A DNA stretch of 64,000 nt, taken from Minisyncoccia bacterium. Its GTDB lineage: Bacteria; Patescibacteriota; Minisyncoccia; Phycocordibacterales; UBA9973. The DNA lies in contig JBGATK010000004.1 in the NCBI GenBank assembly GCA_044229265.1, positions 252 to 64,251 on the forward strand. The letters run 5' to 3'. The notes under the pieces were generated by a model. The model had not been told where the DNA came from and did not search any database. It saw only the letters and a program-made list of their open reading frames with translations. Positions 45,323 to 63,886 of the stretch are shown here, piece after piece. The position numbers and the translations under genes were made by a program. Every line of letters begins with the position of its first letter. The first letter of the stretch is position 1.

Positions 45323-45334
45323 TCATACAAAATA

Positions 45335-45360
45335 AAAAACTCTCATATGAGAGTTTTTTA
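45335..45360. terminator. Bidirectional intrinsic terminator between rpsR (+) and efp (-)
   Basis: AAAAAA-CTCTCATATGAGAG-TTTTTT: palindrome flanked by A-run and T-run. Confidence 0.65.
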
Positions 45361-45371
45361 TTTTGTATAGT

Positions 45372-47034: not shown

Positions 47035-47035
47035 A

Positions 47036-47386
47036 TTAGTTTTTGTAAATTATCTTGTAATCTTTTTTGTCGCTATTGCCAAATTTATCTTTAGCTTCGA
47101 GCGTAATTATATTATAACCTAGAGATAGGGCAATTGTCTCTTTGAAATTACCATTTTCATCTATCGCAATTTCATTGCTATTTAAGGCTAAATTTATAGC
47201 ATTTTTAGCATTTCCAGATACATTTATTATTTCTTCATTATAACTTTCACCATCTTTGATATTTACGTCTTTTATCTGTATTCCAAATAGGATGTTTTTT
47301 GAAACAAACAATACATCAACAAAAATAAAAACGAAAAAACCGATCACTATCCATATGCTCATTATTTTTTTCTGATCTTTTCGCAT
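47036..47386 (-). CDS. Hypothetical small membrane-anchored protein between ftsK and recA
   Basis: 116 aa, N-terminal TM helix; apparently in an operon with ftsK-recA-efp. Confidence 0.35.
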
Positions 47387-47402
47387 TTTTGTATTTTTTT
47401 AT

Positions 47403-49604
47403 TTATTCAATCTGATTATTTCCTGTCTCATCTCGTTCTATTTTTTCTAGAATTGTTCTTTCTCGTGAGCCATCTTTTGGTCCAATCACTCCTCTCTCCT
47501 CGAGCATGTCTATCAAGCGTGCTGCCCGGGAGTACCCTAGGCGTAGTTTTCTTTGCAAATATGAAGTACTTGCTTTACCATCAGCAATTACTATTTGTCT
47601 TGCTTCTTCGTATAGTTCATCTTCGTCTCCACTGTCTAGGTTTGATTCAAAAATACTTTTATCTGCTGATATGCTACCACTATCTAGGTTGATTTCATCT
47701 TGAATTTCATCTTTAAAAGAATCATACAAGTATTTTACTACTGATTTCACTTCACTTTCAGAAATAAAAGCACTTTGTAAGCGTTCCGGGGAAGATTCTC
47801 CTGAAGAATATAGCATATCTCCAGCACCGAGTAGCTTTTCTGCGCCACCAGCGTCTAGTATAGTGCGAGAGTCTATTTGACTCGAAACCTTTAGAGCTAC
47901 GCGTGCCGGAATGTTTGCTTTAATAAGACCAGTTATGACATTTACTTCAGGACGTTGGGTAGATAGTATAAGGTGTATGCCTACTGCACGAGACATTTGA
48001 GCGAGGCGCACAATGCCAGCTTCTAGTTCTCGAGGATATGAAGTCATAATATCTGCAAGTTCATCGATAATAATTACGATAAATGGCATAGGATCAGGAC
48101 CGACTTCTTCTTCTGTGCCATCAGCTCTGGTTTTAGTATTCTTAACATTTTTTGCAACAATATTTGTGTGATAGCTTTGTATATCACGAACACTTTCGCT
48201 CTCGAGTATGTCATAACGTCGTTCCATTTCTTTGGCTGCCCATTTTAAAGCAAGGATACATTTTTTAGCATCTGTAATTACAGGAGTCAGGAGGTGAGGA
48301 ATATTTTTATATAAAGTTAGTTCCACTCTTTTTGGGTCGACAAAAATGAATTTTAATTCTTCTGGTCCGTTGCGATAAAGGAGGGAAGTAATGATAGTAT
48401 GTATGGTCACTGATTTACCAGAACCAGTAGTACCGGCAACCAGAGCATGAGGCATTTTAGCCAAATTACCAAATACAGCTTTCCCTGAGATAGATCGTCC
48501 GAGGGCTACAGTTAGTGGTTTATCAGAAGCGTTAAATTTATTGTCTGCGAGAAGTGTGCCAAGGCCGACAGTTGATTTACTTTTATTTGGAATTTCTATA
48601 CCCACTAGTGATTTGCCAGGTATAGGAGCTTCTATACGTATAGGGTGAGCAGCTAAGGCTAGAGCTAGGTCATTTTGAAGAGTGATTATACGTGATAATT
48701 TTACACCTTCAGCTGGTTTTAAGGCGTATCTAGTTACTGTAGGTCCTACTGTTATTTCATCCATCTCTACTTCTATGCCAAAGTTTGATAGCGTGCGTTT
48801 AATAATAGCGCCGTTTTCTTTTATATCGCCAGTATTTGGTTTGCCTTTGTCTACTTCGAGTAGTGATAGAGGTGGGGGGACATAAGCTGAAGCAGATACG
48901 CTCTTTCTTTTTTTAATAGGCATTTCATCTTCTTCCTCCTTCCCGACGCTTTGTTTTGCAAAGGTCGGGACCCCGCCGACCCCTTTGGGCGTCGGGGCTT
49001 CCTCGTCTTCAATATCTTTTTCCTCTTCTTCAGTTTCTTCATAATCTTCATCTTCATCAATTTCGACTTTTTGGCGCGAGAATAAATTTTTGATTCTTTG
49101 CCAAAAAGTTAGTAGATCAGGTCTTGCATCAAATAGTACTAATATAGAGATAATTAAAAATGCTCCGAGAAACATTATGCTCGCATAAACATCAAAAAGT
49201 GAAATCAGTGGTTTTGAAAAAATTCCTCCGAGAAGCCCACCAGATTCTGTGCCGAGTGCTATGCTTATGAGTCCGAGTCCAGAAGCTAAAAATACAGCTC
49301 CGCTTATTGCACGCAAGCCACCAATATTTGGCCGTTCAGATTTTATAAATGAAATACCTAAAAGTAAAAATAAAACAGGTAATAGAGTATAACCCACACC
49401 TAGTAAATAATAAAATATTTTATAGAAAAATTTTCCAGCCGTTCCGCCTGCATCAAAAGATGCCATAAATAAAAACAATGCTAAAACAAAAAAAACTATC
49501 GCCCATATTGTATGCATGGTTTCAGTTTTTAGTTTTGGTATTGTTTCTTTTTTTTCTTTCACAAATTTTTTATTTTTCTTTTCTATCTTTTTTTCTTTTG
49601 CCAT
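47403..49604 (-). CDS. ftsK: DNA translocase FtsK/SpoIIIE
   Basis: N-terminal 4-TM anchor, acidic linker, Walker A HALVAGTTGSGKSV, Walker B IIIDELAD, winged-helix gamma domain (LGYSRAARLIDMLEERGVIG). Confidence 0.9.
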   Translation of the reverse strand: MAKEKKIEKKNKKFVKEKKETIPKLKTETMHTIWAIVFFVLALFLFMASFDAGGTAGKFFYKIFYYLLGVGYTLLPVLFLLLGISFIKSERPNIGGLRAISGAVFLASGLGLISIALGTESGGLLGGIFSKPLISLFDVYASIMFLGAFLIISILVLFDARPDLLTFWQRIKNLFSRQKVEIDEDEDYEETEEEEKDIEDEEAPTPKGVGGVPTFAKQSVGKEEEDEMPIKKRKSVSASAYVPPPLSLLEVDKGKPNTGDIKENGAIIKRTLSNFGIEVEMDEITVGPTVTRYALKPAEGVKLSRIITLQNDLALALAAHPIRIEAPIPGKSLVGIEIPNKSKSTVGLGTLLADNKFNASDKPLTVALGRSISGKAVFGNLAKMPHALVAGTTGSGKSVTIHTIITSLLYRNGPEELKFIFVDPKRVELTLYKNIPHLLTPVITDAKKCILALKWAAKEMERRYDILESESVRDIQSYHTNIVAKNVKNTKTRADGTEEEVGPDPMPFIVIIIDELADIMTSYPRELEAGIVRLAQMSRAVGIHLILSTQRPEVNVITGLIKANIPARVALKVSSQIDSRTILDAGGAEKLLGAGDMLYSSGESSPERLQSAFISESEVKSVVKYLYDSFKDEIQDEINLDSGSISADKSIFESNLDSGDEDELYEEARQIVIADGKASTSYLQRKLRLGYSRAARLIDMLEERGVIGPKDGSRERTILEKIERDETGNNQIE

Positions 49605-49691
49605 CTATATATTTTAACATATTTTTAAAATAAAATTATATTGTTTATTTTTATTACGATACCCACCCCATATTGGACTTGCAATAAGTAG

Positions 49692-50510
49692 ATGGGCAAG
49701 TATAATGGACGTATGCAAAATGATGGAAAGAATCAAAAAGACACTTTCAAAGACACCCATCTCTCTCTAAAAGACAGCCTTTTTTCTATCTCGTATTCTA
49801 AGACCAATAAGCTCTTAACTGCTTTATATATGGTTACAGAGATAATTGATAAAAATGAACCAATCAGACACAAGCTCAGGTCTCTTGCTACAGATCTCTT
49901 GTCGGACACTTTAGCTACACAGTTCAACTCTAGGACAAATGTCCTAATGGACATAAATAAAAAGATAACTGAAATTATGTCTTTTATGGATATTGCCTCT
50001 ACTATTGGAATGATTTCGGAGATGAATAATCGCATACTAAAAAATGAATTCATGGTGCTAAAAAAATCTTTAAATTTAGAAGAAAATTCTGTTTGGCTGG
50101 AAGAGTTTTTAGCTGAAAATACTTCTATTGGACACGATACTATGTCCGATAGAAGTCCAATAAGAATAGGTGTCCAAAAAGGAGATGGCCTATTAACTGC
50201 ACTCAGAAAAATAGATAAAAATCATATGTCCGATACGAAAAAAGATCATCAAATCAAGCCTGAAAATAAAAAGGAATCTTTTGATAAACTAAAACTTGAA
50301 CGTCGCTACGAAATAATGTCCGTTATTCAGAATTATCCAAACGGTGCTACCATCTCAGACATTCGTTCCAAAGGACAAGGAATTCTCAAAGAAATCGGTG
50401 AAAAAACTTTGCAAAGAGAATTAGTAGCTATGACCATGGATGGAGTTTTGAAACGAGAAGGAGAGAAACGTTGGTCCAAGTATAGCATCATTCCTACTCC
50501 TAAAAGATAG
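49692..50510 (+). CDS. Hypothetical protein with C-terminal winged-helix-like domain (possible transcription regulator)
   Basis: 272 aa; helical N-terminal region. C-terminal RRYEIMSVIQNYPNGATISDIR...GEKTLQRELVAMTMDGVL resembles wHTH DNA-binding domains. Confidence 0.35.
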   Translation: MGKYNGRMQNDGKNQKDTFKDTHLSLKDSLFSISYSKTNKLLTALYMVTEIIDKNEPIRHKLRSLATDLLSDTLATQFNSRTNVLMDINKKITEIMSFMDIASTIGMISEMNNRILKNEFMVLKKSLNLEENSVWLEEFLAENTSIGHDTMSDRSPIRIGVQKGDGLLTALRKIDKNHMSDTKKDHQIKPENKKESFDKLKLERRYEIMSVIQNYPNGATISDIRSKGQGILKEIGEKTLQRELVAMTMDGVLKREGEKRWSKYSIIPTPKR

Positions 50511-51004
50511 TTGCTTTTTGCCTATATTTATGATAAGATACTCTTGTGGTTATTGGGCTTTTTGCACCAGTTTTCCACATAATATATTGCTGTAAATCGT
50601 AGCTTTATATTATAATGTTTATATGTATATTTGGTGCACATTTATTTGTGCGTATATGCATATTGTAAATTCACTTTTGTTTTTAAGTCGAGTCGAAAAT
50701 CACTTAAAAATTTAGTGGACCCAAAGTAAAATATTTCGCAAGAAAAATCTTACCTAGGGAAATGTACGAACATTGAAAACTAAATATTTTCTTGCTCTCC
50801 GCAAATTTGCGAATAGTAAGAATCGTGTTTATGTTTTCAGTTATGTTTCTTGTCTCTGTTCATTTTCTTTTCTCGCAAACATTATTACTTTTTATTAGTT
50901 AATTTTAGTGAGAGAGAATTTGATGGGAAATACGCTTTAGTTTCCTTCTGGTAAAACAGAAGGAGTCGAAACTATATAAAGGCGTAAAATTAAAAAATAA
51001 AATT

Positions 51005-54000
51005 ATGAGTAATTTATTAAAATCAAAATTTCTTTTAGGAACATTGGTTTTCGCAACTGTATTTGCTTTTGCAGCAAATGCTTCTGCGGCTACTTTCAAT
51101 GTTAACCTTAAAAAAGGAATGAGAAATGCTGATGTTACAGCACTTCAAAATGTTCTCGGAGTAAGTCCAGCTACTGGATACTTCGGACCAATAACATTCG
51201 CTGCAGTTAAGGCTTATCAAACAGCTCACGGAATCAGTCCTGTTTCAGGATTCGTAGGTCCACTTACAAGAGCTTCTTTGAATGCTTCAACTCCTACTAC
51301 CCCTACAACACCTACAACTCCAACTACACCTACACAAACAGGTCCAGTTACAGCTGCTGTGTCTACAGACACTCCTGCTGCTGGTACTTTGGTTGCTGGT
51401 CAAGCTACAGCTGATCTTGCGCACTTTACCTTCAGTGGTACAGGCACAGTTACATCTGTAGTATTGAAACGCATAGGCGTATCAGCAGACACTACTCCTT
51501 CAAACGTTTATTTGTTTGATGGCGTAAATCGTCTTACTGATGCAGCTTCTGTATCAAACACAGGTCTAGTAACATTTAATATGCCTTCAGGTATCTTTTC
51601 AGTAGCTGGTTCAAAAACTATCTCTGTAAAGTCTGATATCGCTGGCTCAACTTCAGGACAAACAGTTGGTATGATGCTTACATCATTCACTACTGCTTCT
51701 GGTGTTGTGAATACAACTTTGTCTGGAAATATCCACGCTATCGCTACAGCTACACTAGCTACAGTTTCAGCTGGAACAGTTACTCCTTCAGGAGCAACTC
51801 TTAATCCAGGTGCTGGTGTTACTCTATTCCAATCAACACTTACAGTTTCAAACCGTGATGTTTGGATGAAGAGAATTTCATTTAGAAACTTAGGTTCAGC
51901 ACAAGCTTCAGCTTTTGCTAACTTCAAGCTCTACATGAATGGCGTACAAGTCGCTACAGCTACTGGTTTAGATGCTAATGGTTATGTTACTTTTGACATG
52001 ACTTCAGCTCCTATTACAGTTGCTACTGGTGCTCGTGTAATGCGTGTTGATGCTGATATAATCTCTGGTGCTTCAAGAACAGTACAACTTTCACTTCGCA
52101 ATGCTGCTGATGTCGACTTTGTTGACTCATCATTCGGTGTGAACGTAGCTGCTTCTTCTACACCTTGGACAGCTTCTTCAGCTAACACTATCTCTGGTAC
52201 TTCTGGCGGTAGTATTACAATCGAGAAAGATACATCTTCACCTTCTGGAAACGTTGCTGCTGGTGTAAATGATAAAATTCTCGGTGTATTCAAAGTTACA
52301 GCTTTCGGTGAACCAATGAAAATCGAAACATTGCGTGCTGCAGTTACAGCATCTGATGGTTCTACAGCTTCTCTTCGCAACGGTCGCATAATGATCGGTG
52401 GCGTGCAATATGGTTCTACATCAACATTGCAAGAAGATAGTTCTTCACCTGCTTACACTTCATACACATTAAACTTCACAGTTTACCCAGGCACACCAGT
52501 TCTTATGGAACTACGTGCAGATATCTACGATAACGATGGTACTGACAACGTATCAAACGGTGATACATTCATCGGTGTTATCGCAGCTGGTTCTTCAAAC
52601 GTGCAAAAAGTTGATTCTCTAGGCTCAGTTACTGCTCCTTCTTCAGCTGTATCAGCTAACACTATTACAGTCGCTTCAGCAGCAGCTACTTTGACAAAAG
52701 ATGCTACTTATGCAAACCAAACAGTTGTTCTTCCATCTACTGCTTTCAAAATCGGTGATTGGAATTTGGCTGGTTCTTCAGTTGAAGATATTCTTTTGAC
52801 TACATTGTCATTTGATGTTGATGAAGTTTCTGATACAGAATTTGATGAGGGCGACCTTACAAATATGTATGTAGTAGTGAAGAGTGGTTCTACAATCGTG
52901 GCTCAACCTTCACCTCTAGCTACAGTTTCTGCTACAGACAATAACTTCTCTATCAATTACACATTGGTTAAGAATGGTTCTCTTTCAATCGAACTTTACG
53001 CTAACTTGTCTGACGATGGTTCTGATACATCAATTGATGCTACAGACTCATTCAAGACAGACTTGACTGTAACTGGTACTTCTTTGATCGGTGGTACTTC
53101 CGTCACTGCTACTTCAGCAGATACAGATGGTCAAACAATAGCAGCAGGTACAGCTTCAATAACAGCTACAACAGATGCTTCAGCGATGCTTCAGCTCCAG
53201 TTGCTTCAATTGTCTATGACAATCAAACAGTAACAGCTTCAGTATTCAAATTTGCAGCACTTACAGCAGGCTACAATGTGACTGATCTTACATTCACATT
53301 AGCAAACGCTACAGTTGCTCAAACAGTTGAGCTTTACGATGGTGCTACTCTAGTAGCTAGCCTTCCAGGCGCATCTACAGTAACATTCTCAGGTCTTTCA
53401 TGGAATGTTCCTGCAAATACCAACAAATACTTAACTGTAAAACTGGTTCTAGGTGCAGTAGGTATTGGTGCTGGTACTTCAGGTTCATCACAACTTCTTA
53501 CTTTGACAGCATTCTCAGCTACAAATACTTCTACTGGTGTTAACGCAACAGGAACAGAAAGTGATCCAGCTGGAAATGCGATGTATGCTTATGCATCTAC
53601 ACCAACAATCACAAACGTAGCTCTTCCTACAACAACTTTGAACACAGGCACTGTAACAGCTGCTAAATTCTCAGTTGCTTCAAACGGAGGTTCTATCGAA
53701 TGGAAGAAGTTGATCTTTACTATCACAAAGAGTATTTCTGGTACTGATACTCTAGCTTCAGGTACAGTTTGGGATGCAGATACTAACACACAAGTTGCTG
53801 GTACATTTACATTCACAGGCTCTGTAGAAGCAGATAACGATACTGCTGGAGGTGCTACATTCGTAGCTACTAACCCACAAGCTATCAACGGTACAAAGAC
53901 TTACGTTGTAAAGATGACAGTTGCAGGTACACTTGCATCCGGTGATAACATGAGTGTTTACATCGATCAATTACCTACAAGCTATGCAGCTTCAAACGAT

Positions 54001-54141: not shown

Positions 54142-54182
54142 TAAGTAGAAGATTGAAGTTGGTCTAAACTAGACTGATAAAC

Positions 54183-54216
54183 AAAAAACCACCCGAAAGG
54201 GTGGTTTTTTGTTTTG
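54183..54216 (+). terminator. Strong intrinsic terminator after the surface protein gene
   Basis: AAAAAACCACCC-GAAA-GGGTGGTTTTTTGTTTTGTTTTTT. Confidence 0.75.
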
Positions 54217-54239
54217 TTTTTTGGTATATTGATAGTGCT

Positions 54240-54911
54240 ATGAAAAACATGAATAAAGAGCAAAAGGTAGGTATTATTATAATCATTATTATAGTTTTAG
54301 GTTTGGTTTATTTTAATGTAAGTAAAAAAGAAGAGGTCGTAGAAAATACAGACCAAAAAATAGAAGAAAACACACAAGAATTATTAAAAGAGGAAACAAA
54401 AACTCCAGTACAAAATACAGTTAAAACTCCAAGTGCTAAAGACAGCTTTAATATAGCTATGACAAAAGGAAATACTTCATTTTCAGCAAAAAGATACGAA
54501 GAAGCGGCTGTTTTCTTTAAAGAAGCTTTAAATTATAAAGATTCTGATACAGTATATATTCGTCTATTTGATGTGTATAATGCGCAAAATAATATCGACG
54601 AAGCAAGGGTTTATCTCGAAAAGGCTATCCAAAAAAATCCAGCTTACACTGAATATCGAACTACAAAATTAGTTTTTTTAGATGAAAAGACTAATATCTC
54701 ATATCTGGACTTAAAGAAAATATATGAAGATGCTTTGCCAAAAGTAGATACTCGCACCAAGGTAAACTTGGTTACTACTTTCGCTCGTGTTGCTGAAGCA
54801 AATAAACAATACGGGGAAGCTGCATTCTATTTTGGTTATGCTAAGGAAATATATCCTGCAAATGCGGCTATTTTCCAAGCTGAAATCGACCGCCTCCACA
54901 CCCTCAAATAA
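54240..54911 (+). CDS. Membrane-anchored TPR-like repeat protein
   Basis: Start trimmed to the ATG after the terminator (MKNMNKEQK). TM helix VGIIIIIIIVLGLVYF; TPR-like helices (RYEEAAVFFKEALNYKD..., IDEARVYLEKAIQKNPAY). Confidence 0.5.
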   Translation: MKNMNKEQKVGIIIIIIIVLGLVYFNVSKKEEVVENTDQKIEENTQELLKEETKTPVQNTVKTPSAKDSFNIAMTKGNTSFSAKRYEEAAVFFKEALNYKDSDTVYIRLFDVYNAQNNIDEARVYLEKAIQKNPAYTEYRTTKLVFLDEKTNISYLDLKKIYEDALPKVDTRTKVNLVTTFARVAEANKQYGEAAFYFGYAKEIYPANAAIFQAEIDRLHTLK

Positions 54912-54916: not shown

Positions 54917-54974
54917 CAGGTGTCCGACACCCGATAACCTTACAAACAAAAGCCCGTCGGGTGTTCGACACCTG
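54917..54974. repeat. REP-like 58-bp imperfect palindrome, copy A
   Basis: CAGGTGTCCGACACCCG-ATAACCTTACAAACAAAAGCC-CGTCGGGTGTTCGACACCTG; the arms are reverse complements apart from 2 central mismatches. Followed by GGGCTTTTTGTTT, which pairs with AAACAAAAGCCC inside the element. Confidence 0.8.
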
Positions 54975-55001
54975 AGGGCTTTTTGTTTATAATATTTATG
55001 T

Positions 55002-55694
55002 ATGAGAAAAGATCCATTAATAACAGGTATGTATTATCATATATACAATCGTGGTGTGGATAAACGAGATATTTTTTCTAATTTAAATGATTTAAAGCGT
55101 TTTGTTTTAAGTGCTAAAAAATTTAATAATATTAAGCCGATAGGTAGCTTGAAAGATAAATTAATAGAAGAAAAAAACTTGTCAGGTGTCGAACACCCGA
55201 CGGACGAAATAAAAGAACTTGTTTCTATCGTTTGTTTTTCATTTAATCCAAACCATTTCCATTTTATTGTAAAACAAGAAGTTGATGGAGGTGTATCAGA
55301 ATTTTTTAAAAGATTATTGGGTGGTTATACTAATTATTTTAATATTACAAATCGTAGAAATGGCTCATTGTTTCAAGGTAAATTTAAATCAAATCTTATA
55401 GATGATGATGCGTATTTTTTAAAGATTTACCCATATGCTCATATGAATTATCTGGTTCATGATATTCCAAAAGAAAAACAGCATTTGGTTTTTACTAGTG
55501 AAAAAGAATATAATTCTGGTATTTTTAATTTAGTTTCAAAAAAAGAGGCTGAAGAATTGATAGCCGGATACGGTTCTTTAGAAAATTTTAAAAAAGAATG
55601 TTTAGAAGTTATAGATATGATTAGAGAAGAAAGGGGGCTTGAGCCTCTCGACGGAGAAGACAATTTACCATTTCAGGTGTCCGACACCCGATAA
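55002..55694 (+). CDS. IS200/IS605-like HuH-Y1 transposase, REP-associated (RAYT-like)
   Basis: YHIYNRGVDKRDIF N-terminus, HuH motif NHFHFIV, GSLFQGKF block and C-terminal YPYAHMNY with candidate catalytic Tyr (COG1943/Y1_Tnp pattern). Flanked by REP-like palindromes; the last 7 codons lie in copy B. Confidence 0.65.
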   Translation: MRKDPLITGMYYHIYNRGVDKRDIFSNLNDLKRFVLSAKKFNNIKPIGSLKDKLIEEKNLSGVEHPTDEIKELVSIVCFSFNPNHFHFIVKQEVDGGVSEFFKRLLGGYTNYFNITNRRNGSLFQGKFKSNLIDDDAYFLKIYPYAHMNYLVHDIPKEKQHLVFTSEKEYNSGIFNLVSKKEAEELIAGYGSLENFKKECLEVIDMIREERGLEPLDGEDNLPFQVSDTR

Positions 55695-55731
55695 CCTTAT
55701 AAACAAAAGCCCGTCGGGTGTTCGACACCTG
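55674..55731. repeat. REP-like 58-bp imperfect palindrome, copy B (1 nt different from copy A)
   Basis: Identical to 54917..54974 except TACAAAC versus TATAAAC. Ends 1 nt before the comF stop codon (55732). Confidence 0.8.
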
Positions 55732-56391
55732 TTAGTGGGCAATGGTGAAAGCGTAGATTTTTCGGACACCAGCTTCTGTAAGGACCTTTTTGGCTTCTGA
55801 TAATGTAGCTCCTGTGGTAATGACATCGTCTATTAGGACGATGTTTTTGCCTTTTATATCGTATTTTGGATTTAAAACAAAGGTGCCTTTGAGGTTTTTT
55901 AGTCTTTCACTGCGATTTTTTATGCGTGCCTGATGCTCGGTTTCTTTCTTTTTTTGCAAAATATTTAAATCTATCTCAAAATGCAAAGCTTTTCTGTTTT
56001 TATTAATTTTTGCAACTCCGCTCACTATTAATGCCGTCTGATTAAAACCACGCTCTTTTAGGCGTTTTTTAGAAAGAGGTATGGGGATTAAAATTGGGTT
56101 TTCAAAATTTTCAAATTGAGCGAGTTCCGGTAATTCTTCTAACATTTTTTCATATAAAGCTTGTGCAAAAATGCTGGCTAAACGTTTTTTATGTTTATAT
56201 TTTAACATCCACATTACTTTTTTAACTGGTGGATGGCGATAATCAAATATTGGGAAAATCCACTTCGGGCATTCTCGCACAGCATTTTTAGAGTTAGAGA
56301 GGCATTCAAAGCATATCTCAGTGCCAGATTTACGGCATATAAAGCAATTCACAGGAAAAATAAAGTCTAGTATTGTGTTTAGATAGCTCAT
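55732..56391 (-). CDS. comF: ComF-family protein (phosphoribosyltransferase-domain competence protein ComFC)
   Basis: N-terminal 4-Cys zinc finger (CFICRKSG...CFEC), PRTase motif NIVLIDDVITTGATL. Confidence 0.7.
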   Translation of the reverse strand: MSYLNTILDFIFPVNCFICRKSGTEICFECLSNSKNAVRECPKWIFPIFDYRHPPVKKVMWMLKYKHKKRLASIFAQALYEKMLEELPELAQFENFENPILIPIPLSKKRLKERGFNQTALIVSGVAKINKNRKALHFEIDLNILQKKKETEHQARIKNRSERLKNLKGTFVLNPKYDIKGKNIVLIDDVITTGATLSEAKKVLTEAGVRKIYAFTIAH

Positions 56392-56439: not shown

Positions 56440-57573
56440 ATGGATAATCCACTAAAAAAGTTGTTCAATTCGGCTACTTCAGTTTTTTCAAGGAGCGGAG
56501 CAGGGGGTAGTGCTCTCGGTATCGACATAGGAACTTCAGCAATAAAAATTGTTGAGATAAAAAAGAAAGGAAGCAAGGCTGTGCTGGAAACATACGGTTC
56601 TATTTCGCTTGGCCCTTATGCTGGCACCGAAGTTGGCCGAGTTACAAATTTACCTCTTGAAAAAATAGTAGAGGCATTAAAAGAAGTCTTGAAGCAATCA
56701 AATGTATCTACTACAGACTCAGCGCTTTCCGTTTCAGTGCAGTCGAGCCTTGTTTTTACTATGGATTTACCAGCTAAGGTAGATGAATCACAAATCGCAA
56801 GTATTATTCCAAATGAAGCTCGTAAATTTATTCCTGTGCCTATTACTGAAGTTTCTCTAGATTATTTTATTTTACCTAAAAAAGAGCCTTCTTACGAAGA
56901 GATGAATGCTGGGGATTCTATGGTAGCACCTCAAGATAAAAAAGAAGTATTAGTAGTAGCAATTCAAAATGATGCTATAGAAAAATTGCGAACAGTAGTC
57001 AAAGACACTATGATAAATTCTTCTTTTTTTGAATTAGAAATATTTTCTTCAGTAAGAGCTAATTTCGAACATGAATTATCTTTAGTATTATTGATAGATT
57101 TTGGGGCGAGTCGTACTAAGCTTTCATTGGTGGAATTCGGTATTGTGAAGAATTATCACACTATAAATCGTGGAGGTTCTGATATTACTGATGCTGTGGC
57201 TAAATCACTCGACATTCCTTTTGAAAAAGCAGAAAATTTAAAGAAAGAATTTGGTTTATATGAAAATACTACTGAAAATAAGATGGCTGAAGTGATAAAA
57301 AGCCAGCTCGACTATATCTTTTCTGAAACAAATAATGTATTATTAGGATATGAAAAGAAATACGGCCGAACTGTAAGCAAGGTCATATTTACCGGTGGCG
57401 GAGCACTCATGAAAGGTCTCAAAGAAATTTCTTTAAATAATTTTCGGGCAGATGTAGAAATAGGTCGTCCATTTAAAAAAGTTGGCGCACCTCAATTTTT
57501 AGAAAAAGTTTTAGAGTCTACTGGTCCAGAATTTGCTGTAGCTATCGGACTCGCACTTAGAAAATTGCAATAA
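56440..57573 (+). CDS. pilM: Type IV pilus assembly protein PilM, cluster 2
   Basis: GIDIGTSAIKIVEIKKKG N-terminus, actin-like fold; first gene of the pilMNO(P)-BT-C locus. Confidence 0.75.
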   Translation: MDNPLKKLFNSATSVFSRSGAGGSALGIDIGTSAIKIVEIKKKGSKAVLETYGSISLGPYAGTEVGRVTNLPLEKIVEALKEVLKQSNVSTTDSALSVSVQSSLVFTMDLPAKVDESQIASIIPNEARKFIPVPITEVSLDYFILPKKEPSYEEMNAGDSMVAPQDKKEVLVVAIQNDAIEKLRTVVKDTMINSSFFELEIFSSVRANFEHELSLVLLIDFGASRTKLSLVEFGIVKNYHTINRGGSDITDAVAKSLDIPFEKAENLKKEFGLYENTTENKMAEVIKSQLDYIFSETNNVLLGYEKKYGRTVSKVIFTGGGALMKGLKEISLNNFRADVEIGRPFKKVGAPQFLEKVLESTGPEFAVAIGLALRKLQ

Positions 57574-57592
57574 ATATTTTATAATATAAAAA

Positions 57593-58246
57593 ATGGAGCA
57601 AACTTTTCAAACATCATTTATACCTAAAAAGCCGATAGTAGAAGGCGATGCACCTAGGAGGGAATCTCGCCCTATAGGTTTCTTTACTATTTTTTCTATT
57701 TTTATTTTTTTTGTAACTATTGTTCTTGGTGGAGGAATATATTTTTACGAAAAGACTCTCCAAGAAAAATTAGTTGAACTTTCAGCAAATCAAAAAAAGG
57801 CTGATGAGCGTTTTGAATCTTCAAAGAAAAAAGAACTCCAACTCATCGATCATAGGCTTACTGTAGCAAATCAGGTTTTATCAAAACACATAGCAGTGTC
57901 TCCAATATTTAATGCTCTTAGTAAAGTAACTATGAGAGAAGTTCGTTTTACGAAGTTTTCTTATGAACTCGGTGCAGATAAAAATAGTAATATAAAAGTA
58001 AAATTAACTGGAGAAACAAAGAAATATGTAGATGTAGCCCTACAAGCAGATTTATTCTCACAAGAGAAAAATTTTATTGATCCTGTTTTTTCAAATATGA
58101 TTCCAAACGAAAAAGGTGATATTGCTTTTGATGTAGAATTTTATGTCGATCCGTCTTTTGTAGATTATAAAACAGTTTTAAAATCAGGCGTTTATAGTGA
58201 TAGCCTGGAGGATTTTCCTACAAATCAAAGTGCGCCAATAAATTAA
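57593..58246 (+). CDS. pilN: PilN-like protein, cluster 2
   Basis: Single TM (IGFFTIFSIFIFFVTIVLGGGIYFY) plus periplasmic domain; positional. Confidence 0.5.
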   Translation: MEQTFQTSFIPKKPIVEGDAPRRESRPIGFFTIFSIFIFFVTIVLGGGIYFYEKTLQEKLVELSANQKKADERFESSKKKELQLIDHRLTVANQVLSKHIAVSPIFNALSKVTMREVRFTKFSYELGADKNSNIKVKLTGETKKYVDVALQADLFSQEKNFIDPVFSNMIPNEKGDIAFDVEFYVDPSFVDYKTVLKSGVYSDSLEDFPTNQSAPIN

Positions 58247-58252
58247 ATTATT

Positions 58253-58849
58253 ATGCTTAGATCTATATTACCCATAACTTTAATACTTGCATCCATAGCC
58301 GTTTTTTTGGTGGTTGTAATGCCGACTTATAGAAAGGTAGCTGATTTAAGAGCAGAGGTTTCTGAAAAAAATAATGCACTGGATCAAGCTAGAGTTTTAG
58401 AAAAAGAACGAGAACAATTAACTAATAAATACAATGAAATTAGTCTCGAAAATCGCGAGCGCTTAGAAAAGCTTTTGCCTGACAATGTAGACAATATTCG
58501 TTTGATACTCGAAATCAACGATGTAGTAGCTTCAGCTTATGGCATGACTCTCAAAGACATAAGATACGATTCAAATGATAATTCTAAAAAAACACAAAAT
58601 GCTTCTCTTCCAAGTGCGTCTCAAGCAACACCTAATGATACAAATCCTTACGGTGTTTGGAATTTAGAATTCAGTACCGAGGGAAGTTATGATAATTTTC
58701 TTAATTTTCTAAACGCACTGGAACACAATCTACGCATGGTAGATATAGCTTCAATTTCTTTTGATTCCAACGTCGAAAAAGATAAAAAAAATCCAGGAGA
58801 TGTTTATAAATATTCGTTCAAGATTAAAACTTATTGGTTAAAGAATTAA
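58253..58849 (+). CDS. pilO: PilO-like protein, cluster 2
   Basis: N-terminal TM, coiled-coil (LRAEVSEKNNALDQARVLEKEREQL); positional. Confidence 0.5.
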   Translation: MLRSILPITLILASIAVFLVVVMPTYRKVADLRAEVSEKNNALDQARVLEKEREQLTNKYNEISLENRERLEKLLPDNVDNIRLILEINDVVASAYGMTLKDIRYDSNDNSKKTQNASLPSASQATPNDTNPYGVWNLEFSTEGSYDNFLNFLNALEHNLRMVDIASISFDSNVEKDKKNPGDVYKYSFKIKTYWLKN

Positions 58850-59265
58850 TTATGAAAGGCATAATACGAAACTTAATATTATTTATAGTAATCGGCGGAA
58901 TACTAGCTGGTGGGTTTTATTATTTCTTTAATAAAAATACTGGGGTAGAAGCAAATATATCTTCTTCTGCTACTGCACCTATAAATCCTACTTTGAATTC
59001 TGGTAATAATTTACCAGCTACAAGTATATCCGGTATTACTTTGGATACATCTATATTTTCTAATCCAGCATTTTTGTCTCTTCGTGATTCAAGTGTAATA
59101 CTAATACCTCGTGGCAATGAAGGTAGGCCAAATCCATTTGCTCCAATTGGGATAGATAAAACTTCGAATACTTTGAATACTCTTTCTTTACCTTCAGATG
59201 TAAATACAGGATCCGACGCGAGTATTTTAGAAAATGGGAATTCAGGCACAAGCAATACAAATTAA
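58834..59265 (+). CDS. Small pilus-locus membrane protein (tentatively PilP-like)
   Basis: N-terminal TM, Ser/Thr/Asn-rich, RGNEGRPNPFAP segment; sits at the position PilP occupies in pilMNOP loci. Confidence 0.35.
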   Translation: MVKELIMKGIIRNLILFIVIGGILAGGFYYFFNKNTGVEANISSSATAPINPTLNSGNNLPATSISGITLDTSIFSNPAFLSLRDSSVILIPRGNEGRPNPFAPIGIDKTSNTLNTLSLPSDVNTGSDASILENGNSGTSNTN

Positions 59266-59267
59266 CT

Positions 59268-61043
59268 ATGAGCATTTTAGAAGAATTAGTAAAAAAAAAT
59301 TTAATCAAAAGTGTAGATATAAACGAAATCAAAAATCTCGCGAATGAAAAATTCTCGGGTGATGTTGATGGCGCATTACTTGAATGGGGTTTAAAAGAGA
59401 AAGATCTACTTGAAACAAAAGGCGAATTTTACAATATGCCTATTCGCACCATAAACCCAAAGGAAATATCTATGACGATTTTGAATTATATACCTGAAGA
59501 TTCAGCTCGATTTTATCGTTTTGCTCCTATATCTCTTAAAGATGGTGTACTTGAAGTCGGTGTGACTGATCCAGGCAATGTCGACAGTATGAATGCTTTG
59601 CAATTTATCTCGGCCAAGCTCGGAATGCCTTTTAAGGTGTATTTAATTTCACCACTTGATTATGTGAAAATAATGGATAGTTATAAAGGTATTACTCTCG
59701 ATATGAGTGATGCACTTGATGATTTTACTAATCAAGAAGTTGTAAATGTAAATAAAGAATCTGGGTCTTTGGATTCAAATTTATCTGACAATGAGTCAAA
59801 TCTCACTCGTGAATTGCAAGATGTAAATAAAGGCACAAAGAAATTAGTGGAAGATGCTCCAATTATAAAAATAGTAGCCGTAATATTAAAAAATGCAATT
59901 GAAGGAGGTGCTTCTGATGTTCACATCGAGCATATGGGTGAGAGAGTAAAAGTCAGATATCGAGTTGACGGGACACTACATACTTCTATTATGCTTCCAG
60001 CAAATGTTCATAGTGGAATAATTGCCCGTATTAAAATACTTTCACGCTTACATTTAGACGAAAAACGCAAACCGCAAGACGGGTCTTTTTCAGCAGTGAT
60101 AGATAATCGTAAGGTGGATTTTCGTGTTTCTACTATGCCGGGTTATTACGGAGAAAAAGCAGCAATTCGTATCTTGGATTCTACTAAAGGTTTGAAACCT
60201 ATGAGTGAGCTTGGTTTGTCAGAAATTAATTTAGCTTTATTAAAAGATGCTATTACTAAGCCTTTTGGTCTTATTCTTATTACTGGTCCTACTGGTTCTG
60301 GTAAATCCACTACACTGTATTCTATAATGAATGAGCTTGATAAAGAAAAAAGTAATGTGGTTACCCTAGAAGACCCTGTAGAATATCATATGCCTGATGT
60401 AAATCAATCACAGGTTTTACCGGAAATAGGTTATACTTTTGCTTCAGGACTACGCTCAATTCTAAGACAAGACCCAGACATAATAGTGGTCGGAGAAATT
60501 CGAGATAAAGAAACTGCTCAACTTGCTATTCAAGCTGCGCTTACGGGGCACTTGGTTTTATCTACACTGCACACAAATAATTCTATTGGAGTAATTCCTC
60601 GTCTTGTAGATATGGGTGTGGATCCTTATCTTATTGCTCCAACTTTAATACTTTCTATAGCTCAAAGGCTCGCTAGAATTACTTGTGAATCTTCACGTAA
60701 AGAAGTTCCTATGGAAGAAAGCGTACGCAAGCAATTTGCTGATCAATTTGCTGATTTGCCAGAAGAATACAGGTCAAAAATTAAAATTCCTGAAAAAATG
60801 ATAACTACAGTTCCAAGTCCAGAATGTCCTTCTGGCACAAGGGGTCGTATTGCTATTTTTGAAATGTTTAAAATAGATAAAGACATGCAGGATATTATAC
60901 TTAAAAATCCAACATCGGGAGTTATTTTTGAGAATGTTCGAAAAAAGGGAATGCTGACCATGAAAGAAGATGCTATGCTAAAAGCCGTAACTGGCATAAT
61001 TCCTTATGAAGAAGTGTATAATTTTAACAATGATAATGAATAA
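59268..61043 (+). CDS. pilB: Type IV pilus assembly ATPase PilB (GspE family)
   Basis: T2SE N-terminal domain, Walker A ITGPTGSGKSTT, Asp box, Walker B IIVVGEIRD, His box LVLSTLHTN. Confidence 0.85.
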   Translation: MSILEELVKKNLIKSVDINEIKNLANEKFSGDVDGALLEWGLKEKDLLETKGEFYNMPIRTINPKEISMTILNYIPEDSARFYRFAPISLKDGVLEVGVTDPGNVDSMNALQFISAKLGMPFKVYLISPLDYVKIMDSYKGITLDMSDALDDFTNQEVVNVNKESGSLDSNLSDNESNLTRELQDVNKGTKKLVEDAPIIKIVAVILKNAIEGGASDVHIEHMGERVKVRYRVDGTLHTSIMLPANVHSGIIARIKILSRLHLDEKRKPQDGSFSAVIDNRKVDFRVSTMPGYYGEKAAIRILDSTKGLKPMSELGLSEINLALLKDAITKPFGLILITGPTGSGKSTTLYSIMNELDKEKSNVVTLEDPVEYHMPDVNQSQVLPEIGYTFASGLRSILRQDPDIIVVGEIRDKETAQLAIQAALTGHLVLSTLHTNNSIGVIPRLVDMGVDPYLIAPTLILSIAQRLARITCESSRKEVPMEESVRKQFADQFADLPEEYRSKIKIPEKMITTVPSPECPSGTRGRIAIFEMFKIDKDMQDIILKNPTSGVIFENVRKKGMLTMKEDAMLKAVTGIIPYEEVYNFNNDNE

Positions 61044-61075
61044 AGGTCGTTTTATGATATAATTTAATTAATATT

Positions 61076-61468
61076 ATGGAAGGAGAAAAAAAGAAAATTT
61101 TAATAGTTGACGACGATAGTTTTTTGCTTGATATGTATGCCTTAAAATTTAGCCAAGGCAATTTTGAAATATATACAGCAGGTGATGCTAATCAAGTTTT
61201 AGAAAAATTACGCGGAGGTTTACGTCCAGAAATACTCCTCATGGATATCATCATGCCTGACATAGATGGTTTTGAACTTTTAGAAATTGTAAATAAAGAG
61301 AATTTAGCACCAGATGCAGTTAAAATATTTTTCTCAAATAAAAGCCAACAAACAGATATCGAGAGAGGAAAACAGCTCGGCGCTGCGGGTTATATAGTTA
61401 AAGCAAATTCTACTCCAGCTGAAGTTATCGAACAAGTTTTAGCAATTTTAGAAAAAAACAAGAAATAA
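61076..61468 (+). CDS. Stand-alone CheY-like response-regulator receiver (PilH-like)
   Basis: ILIVDDDSF, phospho-acceptor region LLMDIIMPDIDG, 130 aa, no output domain. Confidence 0.75.
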   Translation: MEGEKKKILIVDDDSFLLDMYALKFSQGNFEIYTAGDANQVLEKLRGGLRPEILLMDIIMPDIDGFELLEIVNKENLAPDAVKIFFSNKSQQTDIERGKQLGAAGYIVKANSTPAEVIEQVLAILEKNKK

Positions 61469-61471
61469 AAA

Positions 61472-62533
61472 ATGGGAAATTATAAAAAAGATCTTGAAGA
61501 GCTTATTCTGACAGTCATTCGTGAGGATGCTTCGGATTTGCATTTGGGCAGTGGCAGAGTTCCTGCTATTCGTGTTTCTGGAGAATTAATTTTTTTAGTT
61601 AAACACTCACCGCTTACCAAAGACGATATGATGGGTTTTCTGAAAGAAATTTTAGATCCAAAAAAATTGGAGAGTTTTTTAGAAAATCAAGAAGCTGATT
61701 TTTCTTATGATTTTCGCGGTGAAGCACGACTTCGTGGTAATGCTTTTTTTCAAAAAGGCATGATAAATTTGGTTTTTCGTTTAGTGCCAAAAGTAAAAAC
61801 TCTAAAAGATCTGAATTTGCCGGATGTTTTAAAAGAAATTGCCAAGAAAAAACAAGGATTCTTTTTAGTTGTAGGGCCAGTTGGGCAAGGTAAATCCACC
61901 ACTCTTTCTTCTATGATTGATATTATAAATAATGAACAAGCTCGTCATATTGTGACAATTGAAGATCCAATAGAGCATGCTTATGTTCCAAATAAATCAA
62001 TTGTGAATCAACGTGAAGTCGGTATTGATACAAAAGATTTCCATACTGCACTTCAATCTGTATTTCGTGAAGATGTGAATGTCATTATGATAGGCGAAAT
62101 GCGCACACCAGAGACTATGGCGACGGCAGTTACTGCTGCTGAAACAGGGCATTTGGTTTTTTCAACTCTGCATACAAATAATGCTTCTCAGACCATAGAC
62201 CGTATTATCGATTCTTTCCCGGGTGGTCAGCAAGATCAAATTCGTGTTCAGCTTGCTTCATCACTTCTTGGTATTTTTTCACAAAGACTTATACCTAAAA
62301 TTACAGGTGGGCTCGTGCCAGCTTATGAATTACTTTTAAATAATAATGCAGTAGCGAATTTGATTCGTGAGAAAAGAACTCACGAAATAGATGTGGTAAT
62401 AGAAACAGGCATGGAGTCTGGCATGGTGGACCTCAATCATTGCTTGCTAGATTTAGTGCGCAGGGGAGAGATCAGTATTGAAAATGCTTATTTGTATTCA
62501 CTAAATCCAAAAGCATTAGAGAGAATGTTGTAA
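61472..62533 (+). CDS. pilT: Twitching-motility/retraction ATPase PilT
   Basis: Walker A VVGPVGQGKSTT, IVTIEDPIE, Walker B IMIGEMR, HLVFSTLHTNNA. Confidence 0.85.
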   Translation: MGNYKKDLEELILTVIREDASDLHLGSGRVPAIRVSGELIFLVKHSPLTKDDMMGFLKEILDPKKLESFLENQEADFSYDFRGEARLRGNAFFQKGMINLVFRLVPKVKTLKDLNLPDVLKEIAKKKQGFFLVVGPVGQGKSTTLSSMIDIINNEQARHIVTIEDPIEHAYVPNKSIVNQREVGIDTKDFHTALQSVFREDVNVIMIGEMRTPETMATAVTAAETGHLVFSTLHTNNASQTIDRIIDSFPGGQQDQIRVQLASSLLGIFSQRLIPKITGGLVPAYELLLNNNAVANLIREKRTHEIDVVIETGMESGMVDLNHCLLDLVRRGEISIENAYLYSLNPKALERML

Positions 62534-62561
62534 TATAAAATTATAAATTAGGGAAAATAAT

Positions 62562-63770: not shown

Positions 63771-63886
63771 AGAGGGTGTGGAAAACTTGGCTTGCTCTTT
63801 TTGACTAGTTTTTATGCTATAATTTATACATAAATTAAAGTCGAAAATTAATTAAAAATTTATTATTAAAAATTTATTAAAAAAAT

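Follow-up and report, generated by a model that had tools for sequence, protein, structure and literature searches.

The 64-kb window considered here, that is, the whole stretch of 64,000 nt analysed from a genome of the Patescibacteria, contains a gene for a RAYT-like protein that is bracketed by two palindromic elements and carries part of the same repeat inside its own coding sequence, which raises the question of what the internal copy is and what it does. The analysis presented below suggests that the palindromes are, most likely, recognition sites of the enzyme encoded between them, kept matched across the locus and damping the expression of their own gene. The features of the locus, numbered from the first nucleotide of the window, are the following.

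54201 to 54911, plus strand: upstream neighbour, gene for a TPR-repeat membrane protein, left boundary
54917 to 54974, no strand assigned: left palindromic doublet (REPIN-like), from repeat comparison and folding (-16.7 kcal/mol, z -4.6); arm 54917-54933, spacer of 24 nt, inverted arm 54958-54974
Extension of the left doublet to about 54984: AAAAGCCC...GGGCTTTTT, terminator-like hairpin for the upstream TPR gene
54965 to 54993, plus strand: promoter-like site of the RAYT-like gene, 11/12 match
55002 to 55694, plus strand: RAYT-like HuH/Y1 gene, 230 aa, from motifs and family profiles
55183 to 55203, minus strand: internal palindrome-arm copy, exact reverse complement of 55711-55731
55254 to 55262, plus strand: HuH motif, H85-F-H87, in HFHF (aa 85-88)
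55434 to 55436, plus strand: candidate catalytic Tyr145, in YPYAHMNY, invariant in the family
55674 to 55731, no strand assigned: right palindromic doublet, 57/58 identity to the left one (-15.8 kcal/mol, z -5.0)
55732 to 56391, minus strand: convergent neighbour comF (TIGR00201, 1.3e-29), right boundary, outside the element

The two flanking 58-nt palindromes described in the sequence-only reading differ, when recomputed, by a single base, and the repeat can be extended to 66 nt at 95%. Each doublet consists of two inverted 17-nt arms, CAGGTGTCCGACACCCG and CGGGTGTTCGACACCTG, on either side of the spacer, and none of 200 shuffled sequences is as stable as the doublets when folded as single-stranded DNA. 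The internal copy, CAGGTGTCGAACACCCGACGG, also as first described, is 100% complementary to the end of the right doublet and lies in frame within the ORF, where its seven codons specify LSGVEHP (aa 61-67), part of the variable loop that joins the first helix to the HuH strand. It represents a single arm, which folds weakly on the sense strand (-4.9 kcal/mol, z -0.9); the hairpin is better on the antisense strand (-7.0 kcal/mol, z -2.1), where a G.T pair stands in place of the A.C mismatch of the plus strand. There is also a T-run on the minus strand at this hairpin; its reading as an antisense terminator was set aside, since Lys/Glu codons account for the T-run, which the related locus L004 does not show consistently. 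With up to two mismatches allowed, the 17-nt arm motif occurs at five sites in the window, all of them in the RAYT-like locus (chance expectation 0.02), and the same scan detects no copy in the other 63 kb. The arms read (T)CAGGTGT-CCG-ACACCCG(A), without GTAG, and the palindrome of this lineage can be searched for as CAGGTGTCSRACACCCG; Rfam has no match at the palindromes, with sub-threshold matches only at an unrelated terminator (54179-54214).

The elements are tightly fitted to the surrounding genes. The left one begins 6 nt past the stop codon of the TPR gene, homologues of which adjoin the family gene in L009-L011, and the right one abuts the stop codon of comF, encoding a phosphoribosyltransferase-type competence protein, which agrees with the location between convergent genes reported initially. 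Terminator-like hairpins for both neighbours, another early proposal, are likewise recovered: 54957-54975 on the plus strand, followed by GGGCTTTTTG, for the TPR gene, and 55727-55712 on the minus strand, followed by GGCTTTTGTT, for comF. The right doublet also supplies the last 7 codons and the stop of the RAYT-like ORF (21 nt of overlap), and the C-termini of homologues lie about 7 aa earlier than that of the window ORF. On the promoter side, the -35 box TCGACA (54965-54970) falls within the second arm of the left doublet and is separated by a 17-nt spacer from the -10 box TATAAT (54988-54993), the last base of which is 8 nt before the ATG, a geometry that implies, as a prediction, a leaderless or near-leaderless mRNA.

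The protein carries the HuH and Y1 blocks previously ascribed to it (HFHF, YHIYNRG, GSLFQGKF and YPYAHMNY), and H85, H87, Y145 and N149 are invariant among 82 aligned sequences with 32-72% identity, with a probable catalytic role for Y145. The window protein alone scores below the curated cutoffs, with 18.1 bits against Pfam PF01797 (Y1_Tnp, gathering score 23) and 19.9 bits against the RAYT equivalog model NF047646 of NCBIfam (cutoff 80), and its membership therefore rests on the family profile. The Y1_Tnp match expected from the first reading thus stays below threshold for the single protein, and in the family 82 of 82 members match at E <= 0.01 (best 3.3e-10). The NCBIfam model REP_Tyr_transpos is matched by 81 of the 82 (best 4.8e-14) and is the sole transposase model matched, the IS200 models of NCBIfam being matched by none of the 82 members at E <= 0.01. 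Alignment with E. coli RayT by hhalign (E = 1.1e-4) superimposes the HuH motif, LFQGKF on IWQPRF and YVNLN on YIYIN, and the HuH of the family aligns with PDHVH of ISDra2 TnpA and PEHMH of E. coli RayT. Searches of solved structures with single-sequence and shallow-profile queries matched nothing, a diverse family profile gave weak matches only (E about 0.2, to 2xm3 and 4er8), and an AlphaFold model built on a 26-sequence alignment, with a mean pLDDT of 42.4, is too poor to judge the fold. These comparisons identify, at the level of sequence, a distant RAYT-like HuH/Y1 protein, not an equivalog, that appears nearer to RAYTs than to IS200 TnpA and belongs to a large family, with over 2,600 proteins matched in the search and over 545 species representatives.

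The gene occurs once in the window, and in relatives down to 37% identity it lies between ftsK and rplJ (L002, L004, L007, L009-L011 and the distant L043, L067, L073 and L076). No near-identical duplicates of the gene are present among the 83 loci compared, and paralogues within the same genome are only 40-50% identical and are each accompanied by a different palindrome (L017/L018, L007/L078, L030, L037). The single copy and the conserved synteny point to a REPtron rather than a hopping insertion sequence, that is, to a gene that appears vertically inherited in Patescibacteria and domesticated, in agreement with the RAYT-type architecture proposed at the outset.

The arrangement seen in the window recurs in most of the family. 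The comparison covered the 83 loci, with promoter counts taken over 79 of them, and perfect stems of at least 9 bp were found upstream of the gene in 51/83, at a first internal site in 50/83, at a second internal site in 16/83 and at the stop codon in 50/83, as against 1, 0 and 5 of 83 in control windows of equal size in the same genes; a copy of some kind is present upstream in 65/83 loci and downstream in about 60/83. The first internal site, at about +175, corresponds to the loop before the HuH strand, and the second, at about +445, lies just after the helix of the catalytic Tyr and is confined to a sub-clade, where it occurs in addition to or in place of the first. In 48-57 of the 83 loci, including some with as little as about 35% protein identity, a lineage-specific palindrome occupies the homologous internal position, and internal stems, which reach up to 20-24 bp, often exceed those of the flanks in length. 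The loop has the same length with or without a palindrome, with no net gain, which weakens simple insertion as the origin of the internal copy. Its orientation differs between close relatives, which argues against a strictly strand-specific site, and a basal clade has the flanking palindromes and lacks the internal ones, which means that the enzyme can do without the internal site.

At the borders of the gene the spacing is narrow, the 3′ end of the upstream hairpin lying at a median of 21 nt from the ATG and the downstream hairpin at a median of 3 nt from the stop codon. The upstream palindrome adjoins the (TGn)TATAAT box of a promoter of the leaderless type. In 42/79 loci, the distance from the end of TATAAT to the ATG is 6-9 nt, and SD-like sequences are found in only 4/79. 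The palindrome as a general source of the -35 box holds for the window only, many relatives having an extended -10 box, TGnTATAAT, instead. Most relatives have perfect palindromes, and GTAG occurs within the stem in a few (L011, L030, L036 and L046). The DnaA-box-like sequence TATCCACA was also considered as a part of the element, being enriched about 10-fold near the gene, but it is found upstream of other genes as well and is treated as a general promoter-associated motif outside the element.

Within each locus, the copies appear to change together. The 7-nt arm of the internal copy equals a flanking arm in 47/62 loci, compared with 42/3782 (1.1%) between loci, and 62 distinct arms are represented. 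Each lineage shows its own perfect palindrome, which is shared by all sites within a locus. Since the palindromes vary by lineage, match within the locus and differ between paralogues, the sites co-evolve with the protein enclosed by them. All four Watson-Crick pair types occur at every position of the uninterrupted stems, the stem ends show no excess of G.T over A.C, a compensatory pair distinguishes the extended internal stem of L004 from that of L009, and the encoded peptide is hypervariable, without consensus at the loop; strict pairing together with a hypervariable peptide indicates a constraint on the DNA, not on the protein. RNA structure was rejected as the main constraint in view of the strictly Watson-Crick, uninterrupted stems with no preference for G.T over A.C, and also of the upstream copy, which lies outside the leaderless transcript. 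Among the three options initially left open for the internal fragment, a recognition site carried in the gene is the one favored by its recurrence, in most family members, at one and the same codon, and by its tracking of the flanking copies by lineage, whereas a recombination scar and accidental self-targeting, as one-off events, are not.

The dispersal expected of a REP, for which the window offers no further copy, is observed at low copy number in relatives. Across the 783 kb of flanks there are 23 distal palindromes near their genes, or about one every 34 kb, and 16 of the 23 are intergenic although the flanks are 83% coding; metagenomes contain 31 sites linked to the gene, 31 definite orphans and 35 cases that are unclear, or about 1.5-3.5 orphans per gene locus. 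The occurrence of palindromes away from the gene makes them REP-like, and their presence elsewhere at low copy indicates that they are or were mobile. Some orphans follow the stop codons of other genes, and 13 lie in frame inside genes for LeuRS, Mur ligase, a class-V aminotransferase and an amidase, the Pfam matches of which remain strong across the palindrome sites; in LeuRS and Mur ligase the palindrome has an identical position in two populations. In the window itself, the only gene with an in-frame palindrome is the RAYT-like one. Since palindromes also reside inside unrelated genes, part of the pattern could be tolerated insertion, not function.

The closest known systems are E. coli rayT (yafM) and the REPtrons of Pseudomonas, which share with this locus a HuH enzyme with a single Tyr and RAYT-type motifs, one vertically inherited copy flanked on both sides by the cognate palindrome, a separate repeat family for each paralogue and repeats after the stop codons of other genes; the inverted doublets of the window also resemble REPINs. 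The differences are nevertheless considerable, as the host belongs to the Patescibacteria, not to the Proteobacteria, the window protein is far diverged and extends by about 70 additional aa at the C-terminus, and the repeats of the window are perfect palindromes without the GTAG tag. The 16-mer flanking RAYT genes averages about 41 occurrences per replicon (PMC5581495), whereas the repeats here appear few, at one per 34 kb or so near the gene in relatives and none in the 63 kb of the window outside the locus. Finally, the coding sequence contains the cognate palindrome, at one conserved position or at two, and a copy also abuts the -10 box of the gene; REPs flank E. coli rayT on either side and are absent from its interior, and neither an internal palindrome nor one abutting the -10 box was found in that gene or in the RAYT literature searched.

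On balance, the locus is probably a REPtron of a CPR genome of the Paceibacteria type, from an ultra-small bacterium, in which the cognate palindrome is built into the expression unit of the gene, where it would be recognized, kept matched and used to damp expression. By analogy with E. coli TnpA-REP and IS200/IS608 TnpA, the enzyme would recognize the palindrome as a hairpin of single-stranded DNA and would cut and rejoin the strand beside it; this reaction, on the same analogy, would both spread copies and keep them matched, including those in its own gene. The geometry of the locus suggests that the copies at the promoter, in the ORF and at the stop codon hold expression of the gene low, and this damping may result from structure alone or from the bound protein, as a negative feedback in cis. 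IS200 offers a parallel, since it holds tnpA expression very low by means of hairpins, namely a terminator and a stem occluding the ribosome binding site. Damping of RAYT/IS200 expression by hairpins has also been discussed (PMC3733652).

The alternative that survives best, possible although on the unlikely side, is that the internal copy is a functionless by-product of palindromes inserting into or overwriting permissive loops, with the RAYT-like gene as the nearest and most exposed target, and that it owes its survival to a loop free of constraint and to the enzyme, or template switching, which would maintain perfect palindromes. The in-frame palindromes of the LeuRS, Mur ligase, aminotransferase and amidase genes, at a position shared by two populations in the first two, are what this explanation predicts, and there are precedents in the intragenic REPs known in other systems (PMC3733652) and in the Rickettsia palindromic elements (RPEs), which lie in frame in housekeeping genes and add short peptides (PMC10969869). 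The same in-frame habit is shared by the palindromes of the relatives, but RPEs, with a length of about 100-150 bp, are not known to have an enzyme of their own, whereas the present elements are of 21-45 bp and associated with a RAYT-like gene, and their hosts include the gene of the presumed mobilizing enzyme itself, at a position conserved across the family. The basal clade without internal copies, the weak, partial hairpin of the internal copy in the window and the hypervariability of the host loop also fit a by-product. Against it stand the retention of the position in more than half of the loci at protein identities as low as those given above, together with another fixed position used by a sub-clade, the constant loop length, internal stems that often exceed the flanking ones and show compensatory changes, the identity to the flanks maintained in 47/62 loci, and E. 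coli rayT, which has remained free of internal copies amid hundreds of REPs.

Rather unlikely is a stronger version of the recognition-site idea, in which the intragenic palindrome would be an obligatory nick or loading site in cis, comparable to an origin. The origins of phiX174 gene A and pT181 repC provide the model, the nick site of the HuH initiator lying within the initiator's own gene. Both systems share with this locus a HuH enzyme and a cognate hairpin or nick site in its coding sequence, an arrangement that ties enzyme and site together and favors action in cis; however, they are replication origins of a phage and a plasmid with a demonstrated nick, whereas the site considered here is putative, belongs to a chromosomal single-copy gene and is repeated up to four times per locus. 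Under such a requirement, the Y1 enzyme, made on the spot from the leaderless mRNA, would copy or exchange cassettes among all sites of the genome. This, if true, would account for the identity of promoter, coding, stop and housekeeping copies despite drift between lineages, as well as for the free flips of the loop and the preserved reading frame and loop length, and it would define a self-contained replicator of enzyme plus site, the specificity code of which could be read from thousands of protein/palindrome pairs.

It is quite improbable that the palindromes are ordinary regulatory DNA, either operators of dimeric repressors or bidirectional terminators, to which the Y1 protein is indifferent. 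Perfect palindromes of the double-stranded type, with a 3-nt center and no G.T pairs, would suit an operator, one copy occupies an operator position beside the -10 box, and the copies past stop codons read as terminators. Unlike the sites of a host regulator or a generic terminator, however, the palindrome changes with the protein lineage and differs between paralogues of the same genome; moreover, generic terminators need no identity between sites, and the copies in coding loops of the RAYT-like and housekeeping genes are at neither terminator nor operator positions. An active insertion sequence of the IS200/IS605 type, with the flanking palindromes as left-end and right-end hairpins of an 815-bp unit moving through a single-stranded circle, is scarcely credible, since, although the Pfam match (Transposase IS200 like), the single Y1 gene in a unit of about 0.8 kb and the similar end hairpins in direct orientation recall IS200 and IS608, the ftsK-rplJ position is conserved across deep divergence, the gene is single in the window and without identical duplicates in 83 loci, its paralogues have diverged along with their palindromes, the RAYT model of NCBIfam is matched by 81 of 82 members and its IS200 models by none, nothing indicates mobility as a unit, and the hairpins are perfect palindromes that are also found solitary, without the gene, and inside the ORF.

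RAYT/REPIN systems serve as a model for long-lived, vertically inherited replicators in bacterial genomes. To our knowledge, work on them has dealt almost exclusively with Proteobacteria and has looked at extragenic flanks only. The comparison with relatives shows a conserved, co-evolving design, most likely a REPtron with its palindrome built into its own expression unit, in what appears, from sequence comparison, to be a large undescribed REP/RAYT branch of the candidate phyla radiation. The palindrome is written into the promoter, the coding sequence and the stop codon, and therefore a constraint on the DNA can be read from protein alignments, in which it surfaces as peptides such as SGVGHP, SGVQHP and SDVGRP. 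As to annotation, odd short peptides and C-terminal extensions (...FQVSDTR) derive from the palindromic repeats. The in-frame copies of the relatives indicate that tiny, streamlined genomes tolerate palindromic insertions within essential genes. The family constitutes a natural covariation dataset for the specificity between HuH proteins and hairpins, and the locus offers a specific example in which a domesticated transposase may control itself via its own target.

The locus in the window bears out the sequence-only reading in every descriptive detail and supports its interpretation. The two 58-nt elements that bracket the RAYT-like gene differ at one base, and folding them as single-stranded DNA gives -16.7 and -15.8 kcal/mol, with z of -4.6 and -5.0 against shuffles.

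Features of the RAYT-like locus in the window
54917-54974: left element, a doublet of two inverted 17-nt arms with a 24-nt spacer
54965-54970: -35 hexamer TCGACA, within the second arm of the left doublet
54988-54993: -10 box TATAAT, ending 8 nt before the ATG
55002-55694, plus strand: RAYT-like gene, 230 aa
55183-55203: internal copy, 21 nt
55674-55731: right element, a doublet of two inverted 17-nt arms with a 24-nt spacer

The internal 21-mer is the perfect reverse complement of the final 21 nt of the element and lies in frame, encoding LSGVEHP; the 3' end of the ORF extends 21 nt into the right element, from which it takes its final seven codons and stop, whereas its homologues end earlier at the C-terminus. 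The left element comes after the stop of the TPR gene and the right one adjoins the stop of the convergent comF (TIGR00201, 1.3e-29), and each can be read, as proposed, as a terminator-like hairpin for its neighbour. All five arm sites in the 64-kb window fall in this locus (0.02 expected), and in the window no in-frame or dispersed palindrome occurs beyond it; further copies, which would set the palindrome apart from one unique to the locus, are thus missing from the window but present as dispersed copies in relatives. Other palindromes of the window include a perfect 16-bp one at 54179-54214 between A and T runs (AAACAAAAAACCACCCGAAAGGGTGGTTTTTTGTTT), a bidirectional terminator-like hairpin between a surface-protein gene and the TPR gene with several sub-threshold, probably meaningless Rfam matches (Phe_leader, NrrF, RNAI), and long perfect ones at 44009-44046 and 45325-45368 (stems of 17 and 20 bp; ACCCCCACACCTATTTTT..., ATACAAAATAAAAAACTCTCATATGAGAG...), whose sequences have no relation to that of the REP-like element.

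The Y1-transposase match expected for the protein is sub-threshold for the window protein alone, which scores 18.1 bits against Pfam Y1_Tnp (curated threshold 23) and 19.9 bits against NCBIfam REP_Tyr_transpos (threshold 80), and holds for its family, since in an alignment of 82 members (32-72% identity) all match Y1_Tnp (best 3.3e-10) and 81 the NCBIfam RAYT model (best 4.8e-14); none of the 82 matches the IS200 models. The HuH histidines H85 and H87, Y145 and N149 of the Tyr helix, and N16, G18, G121 and L123 are invariant, and hhalign against E. coli RayT (E = 1.1e-4) places HuH, LFQGKF/IWQPRF and YVNLN/YIYIN in register. A PDB sequence search with the window protein gave no match, and its structure model (pLDDT 42) was too poor for use. 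Because the sub-threshold scores of the single protein stand beside these family-wide matches and the RayT alignment, the window protein is best classed as a far-diverged RAYT-like HuH/Y1 enzyme and as no equivalog of the characterised RAYTs. Homologues at E <= 1e-3 number 2,691 and come from Paceibacterota, Nomurabacteria, Zambryskibacteria and Staskawiczbacteria, nearly all of them unnamed or labelled 'transposase' or 'RayT', and at least 545 GTDB species representatives carry a relative of the gene.

The peptide encoded at the internal site varies across the protein alignment (SGVGHP, SGVQHP, SDVGRP, SDVQRP, TDVGRL) with no consensus among the 82 members, in a manner that reflects a DNA stem: G...H peptides correspond to GGTGT...ACACC and D...R peptides to GACGT...ACGTC, which are compensatory changes, and the G/Q alternation to a flip of the loop, TTGGA versus TCCAA. 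The DNA of two relatives' loci confirms this reading. L002 carries TTCGGACGT-CCA-ACGTCCGAA twice upstream and once after the stop, with its reverse complement in the gene inside a 20-bp perfect stem, and L004 carries CCCGTCGGGTGT-TGG-ACACCCGACGGG in the same three places. A survey of 83 loci extends the pattern to the family.

Palindromes at family-gene loci (83 loci surveyed)
Genome-specific palindrome upstream of the gene: 65/83
Palindrome in the gene at +120..+260: 48/83
Palindrome in the gene at +380..+500: 14/83
Palindrome at or after the stop: about 60/83
Perfect stems >= 9 bp: upstream 51/83, site 1 (about +175) 50/83, site 2 (about +445) 16/83, stop 50/83
Perfect stems >= 9 bp in three control windows of the same genes: 1/83, 0/83, 5/83
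Internal 7-nt arm equal to a flanking arm of the same locus: 47/62
Internal arm equal to a flanking arm of a different locus: 42/3,782 pairs (1.1%)
Distinct arms: 62

Across loci all four Watson-Crick pairs are used at each stem position, stems are uninterrupted, with pairing continuing to pair 10 (83%), and G.T is no more frequent than A.C; these are DNA-type palindromes. Each paralogue of one genome or locus (L017/L018, L007/L078, L030, L037) has a palindrome of its own, at its own sites, and loop length is equal in members with and without one. On a neighbour-joining tree a basal clade in which the canonical YIHLNP motif is retained has flanking copies only, site 1 is spread over most of the family, and site 2 marks a sub-clade, some members of which have both. 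The control, E. coli rayT, has REPs on either side and none within the gene. The palindrome thus covaries with the protein, under constraint at the DNA level, and is part of the design of the RAYT-like gene.

The flanking copies sit close to expression signals. The window promoter is an 11/12 match to a sigma-70 site. Of 79 loci, 42 have a TATAAT, often as TGnTATAAT, whose end lies 6-9 nt before the ATG (most often 6 nt, in 25 loci), and only four have an SD-like sequence, because of which the mRNA of the family gene is probably leaderless. The distance from the end of the upstream palindrome to the ATG has a median of 21 nt (IQR 16-35), the palindrome lying directly against the -10 box, and the downstream one begins a median of 3 nt (IQR -3 to 13) from the stop. 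A sequence identical to the DnaA-box consensus, (T)TATCCACA, also closely precedes the upstream palindrome, in every case on the coding strand and at about -51 from the ATG, in L017, L018, L028, L037, L043, L046, L057, L058 and L079, and after the gene in L004 (10699-10707), L043 and L046; near the family gene it shows an enrichment of about 10-fold, and it is common upstream of other genes too (67 more sites in 1.2 Mb), and may be a general promoter-associated motif of these bacteria.

Palindromes of the RAYT-like family are also low-copy mobile elements, whose dispersal includes coding DNA. Within 10 kb of the gene, 783 kb of flanks hold 23 distal copies, their density dropping with distance, and 16 are intergenic although 83% of the flanks is coding. 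The motif GTCGGGTGTYSRACACCCGAC, of the type common to the closest relatives of the window, has 97 sites in metagenomes, namely 31 gene-linked (13 upstream, 9 internal at +179, 9 downstream), 31 definite orphans and 35 too near contig ends to be called. Intergenic orphans lie mostly 5-35 nt past the stop of a co-directional gene, and 13 orphans are in frame in long ORFs (LeuRS, Mur ligase, class-V aminotransferases, amidase), where, like the internal copy of the RAYT-like gene, they usually encode SGVGHPT or SGVQHPT; in LeuRS, where the editing domain begins, and in Mur ligase the palindrome occupies an identical position in two populations each, with the loop flipped. The palindrome in these intact housekeeping genes is of the Nomurabacteria type, GTCGGGTGT-YSR-ACACCCGAC, and adds SGVGHPT-like peptides in frame.

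Housekeeping host genes in relatives' contigs
Minus strand: L096 708-2969, L104 3422-5725, L095 10151-11404, L101 2942-4129
Plus strand: L088 2561-3817, L114 2792-3979, L147 3630-5057, L158 2825-4198

Some host genes hold two different palindromes side by side, and such adjacent pairs, of GGGTGT and GGACGT types or of one type twice, occur within or between genes (L101 ~3252-3300, L114 ~3630-3672; also L147, L158 and L137/L141); new copies seem to land beside existing ones.

An insertion sequence was rejected in favour of a domesticated gene, given its conserved neighbours, single copy and divergent second copies. In relatives the gene is flanked to one side by ftsK together with genes for PG_binding surface proteins, and to the opposite side by a 207-aa gene, an Ig-like surface protein and rplJ/rplL; by tblastn, ftsK and/or rplJ lie within 10 kb in L002, L004 and L006-L011 and also in the distant L043, L067, L073, L076 and L079. 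The window has one family gene, and the two found together in some genomes share 40-50% identity. Upstream, the window has PG_binding and TPR genes in common with L009 and L011; downstream of comF the window (56440-64000; also L001 2242-11496) has a type IV pilus/competence-like cluster of pilM, two T2SSE ATPases, a response regulator, T2SSF, two N_methyl pilins and a prepilin peptidase, and the locus therefore stands, unlike in relatives, at the edge of a DNA-uptake neighbourhood. Directly upstream, at 46001-54000, GC skew becomes negative and G+C rises to 0.41 against ~0.33 elsewhere, over Thr/Ala-rich PG_binding surface-protein genes. L001 (GCA_964617005.1, contig CAZTVE010000002.1), a second assembly with an identical protein, ends ~800 nt upstream of the gene, at ~54199 of the window, at the terminator palindrome and not at the REP-like element. 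Many MAGs (L010-L012, L014, L015, L020, L026, L035, L039 and others) titled 'uncultured Candidatus Saccharibacteria', 'Gammaproteobacteria' or 'Bdellovibrionales' have a clearly Paceibacteria-type gene and neighbourhood, and look mislabelled.

Because E. coli TnpA-REP cleaves and rejoins REP single-stranded DNA, and the TnpA of IS608 and ISDra2 recognise hairpins, the RAYT-like enzyme would recognise its palindrome when this forms a hairpin in single-stranded DNA, and may, through cutting and rejoining, spread the copies and keep them matched. The main rival, that the internal copy is merely a tolerated insertion, as in LeuRS, agrees with its absence from the basal clade and with the weak internal hairpin in the window, yet pure neutrality is hard to reconcile with the conserved position, the unchanged loop length, the extended, compensated stems and the maintained identity with the flanks. 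For a palindrome matched to its enzyme, the geometry of copies against the -10 box, in the ORF and a few nucleotides from the stop suggests that expression of the enzyme would be held low, with possible feedback when the protein is bound to them; in E. coli, REPs reportedly reduce translation when they lie within ~15 nt of a stop codon. Earlier work has proposed that hairpins damp the expression of RAYT and IS200 (PMC3733652).

REPtrons and intragenic REPs (PMC3733652) and in-frame RPEs (PMC10969869) are of a kind already described. The intragenic-REP table of PMC3733652 has no transposase hosts, RAYT surveys cover extragenic flanks only (PMC5581495), neither CPR nor intragenic sites come up in a phylogenomic survey of Y1 proteins (PMC6006769), and our search for literature on RAYT in Patescibacteria or CPR found nothing relevant. 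The literature searched contains no account of a RAYT-like clade extending across the CPR, nor of a RAYT gene whose cognate palindrome is conserved within it and against its promoter. The weight of the finding lies not in the single locus but in the family-wide pattern that it exposed, a RAYT-like enzyme gene with lineage-specific palindromes at fixed positions, the interior of the ORF included.
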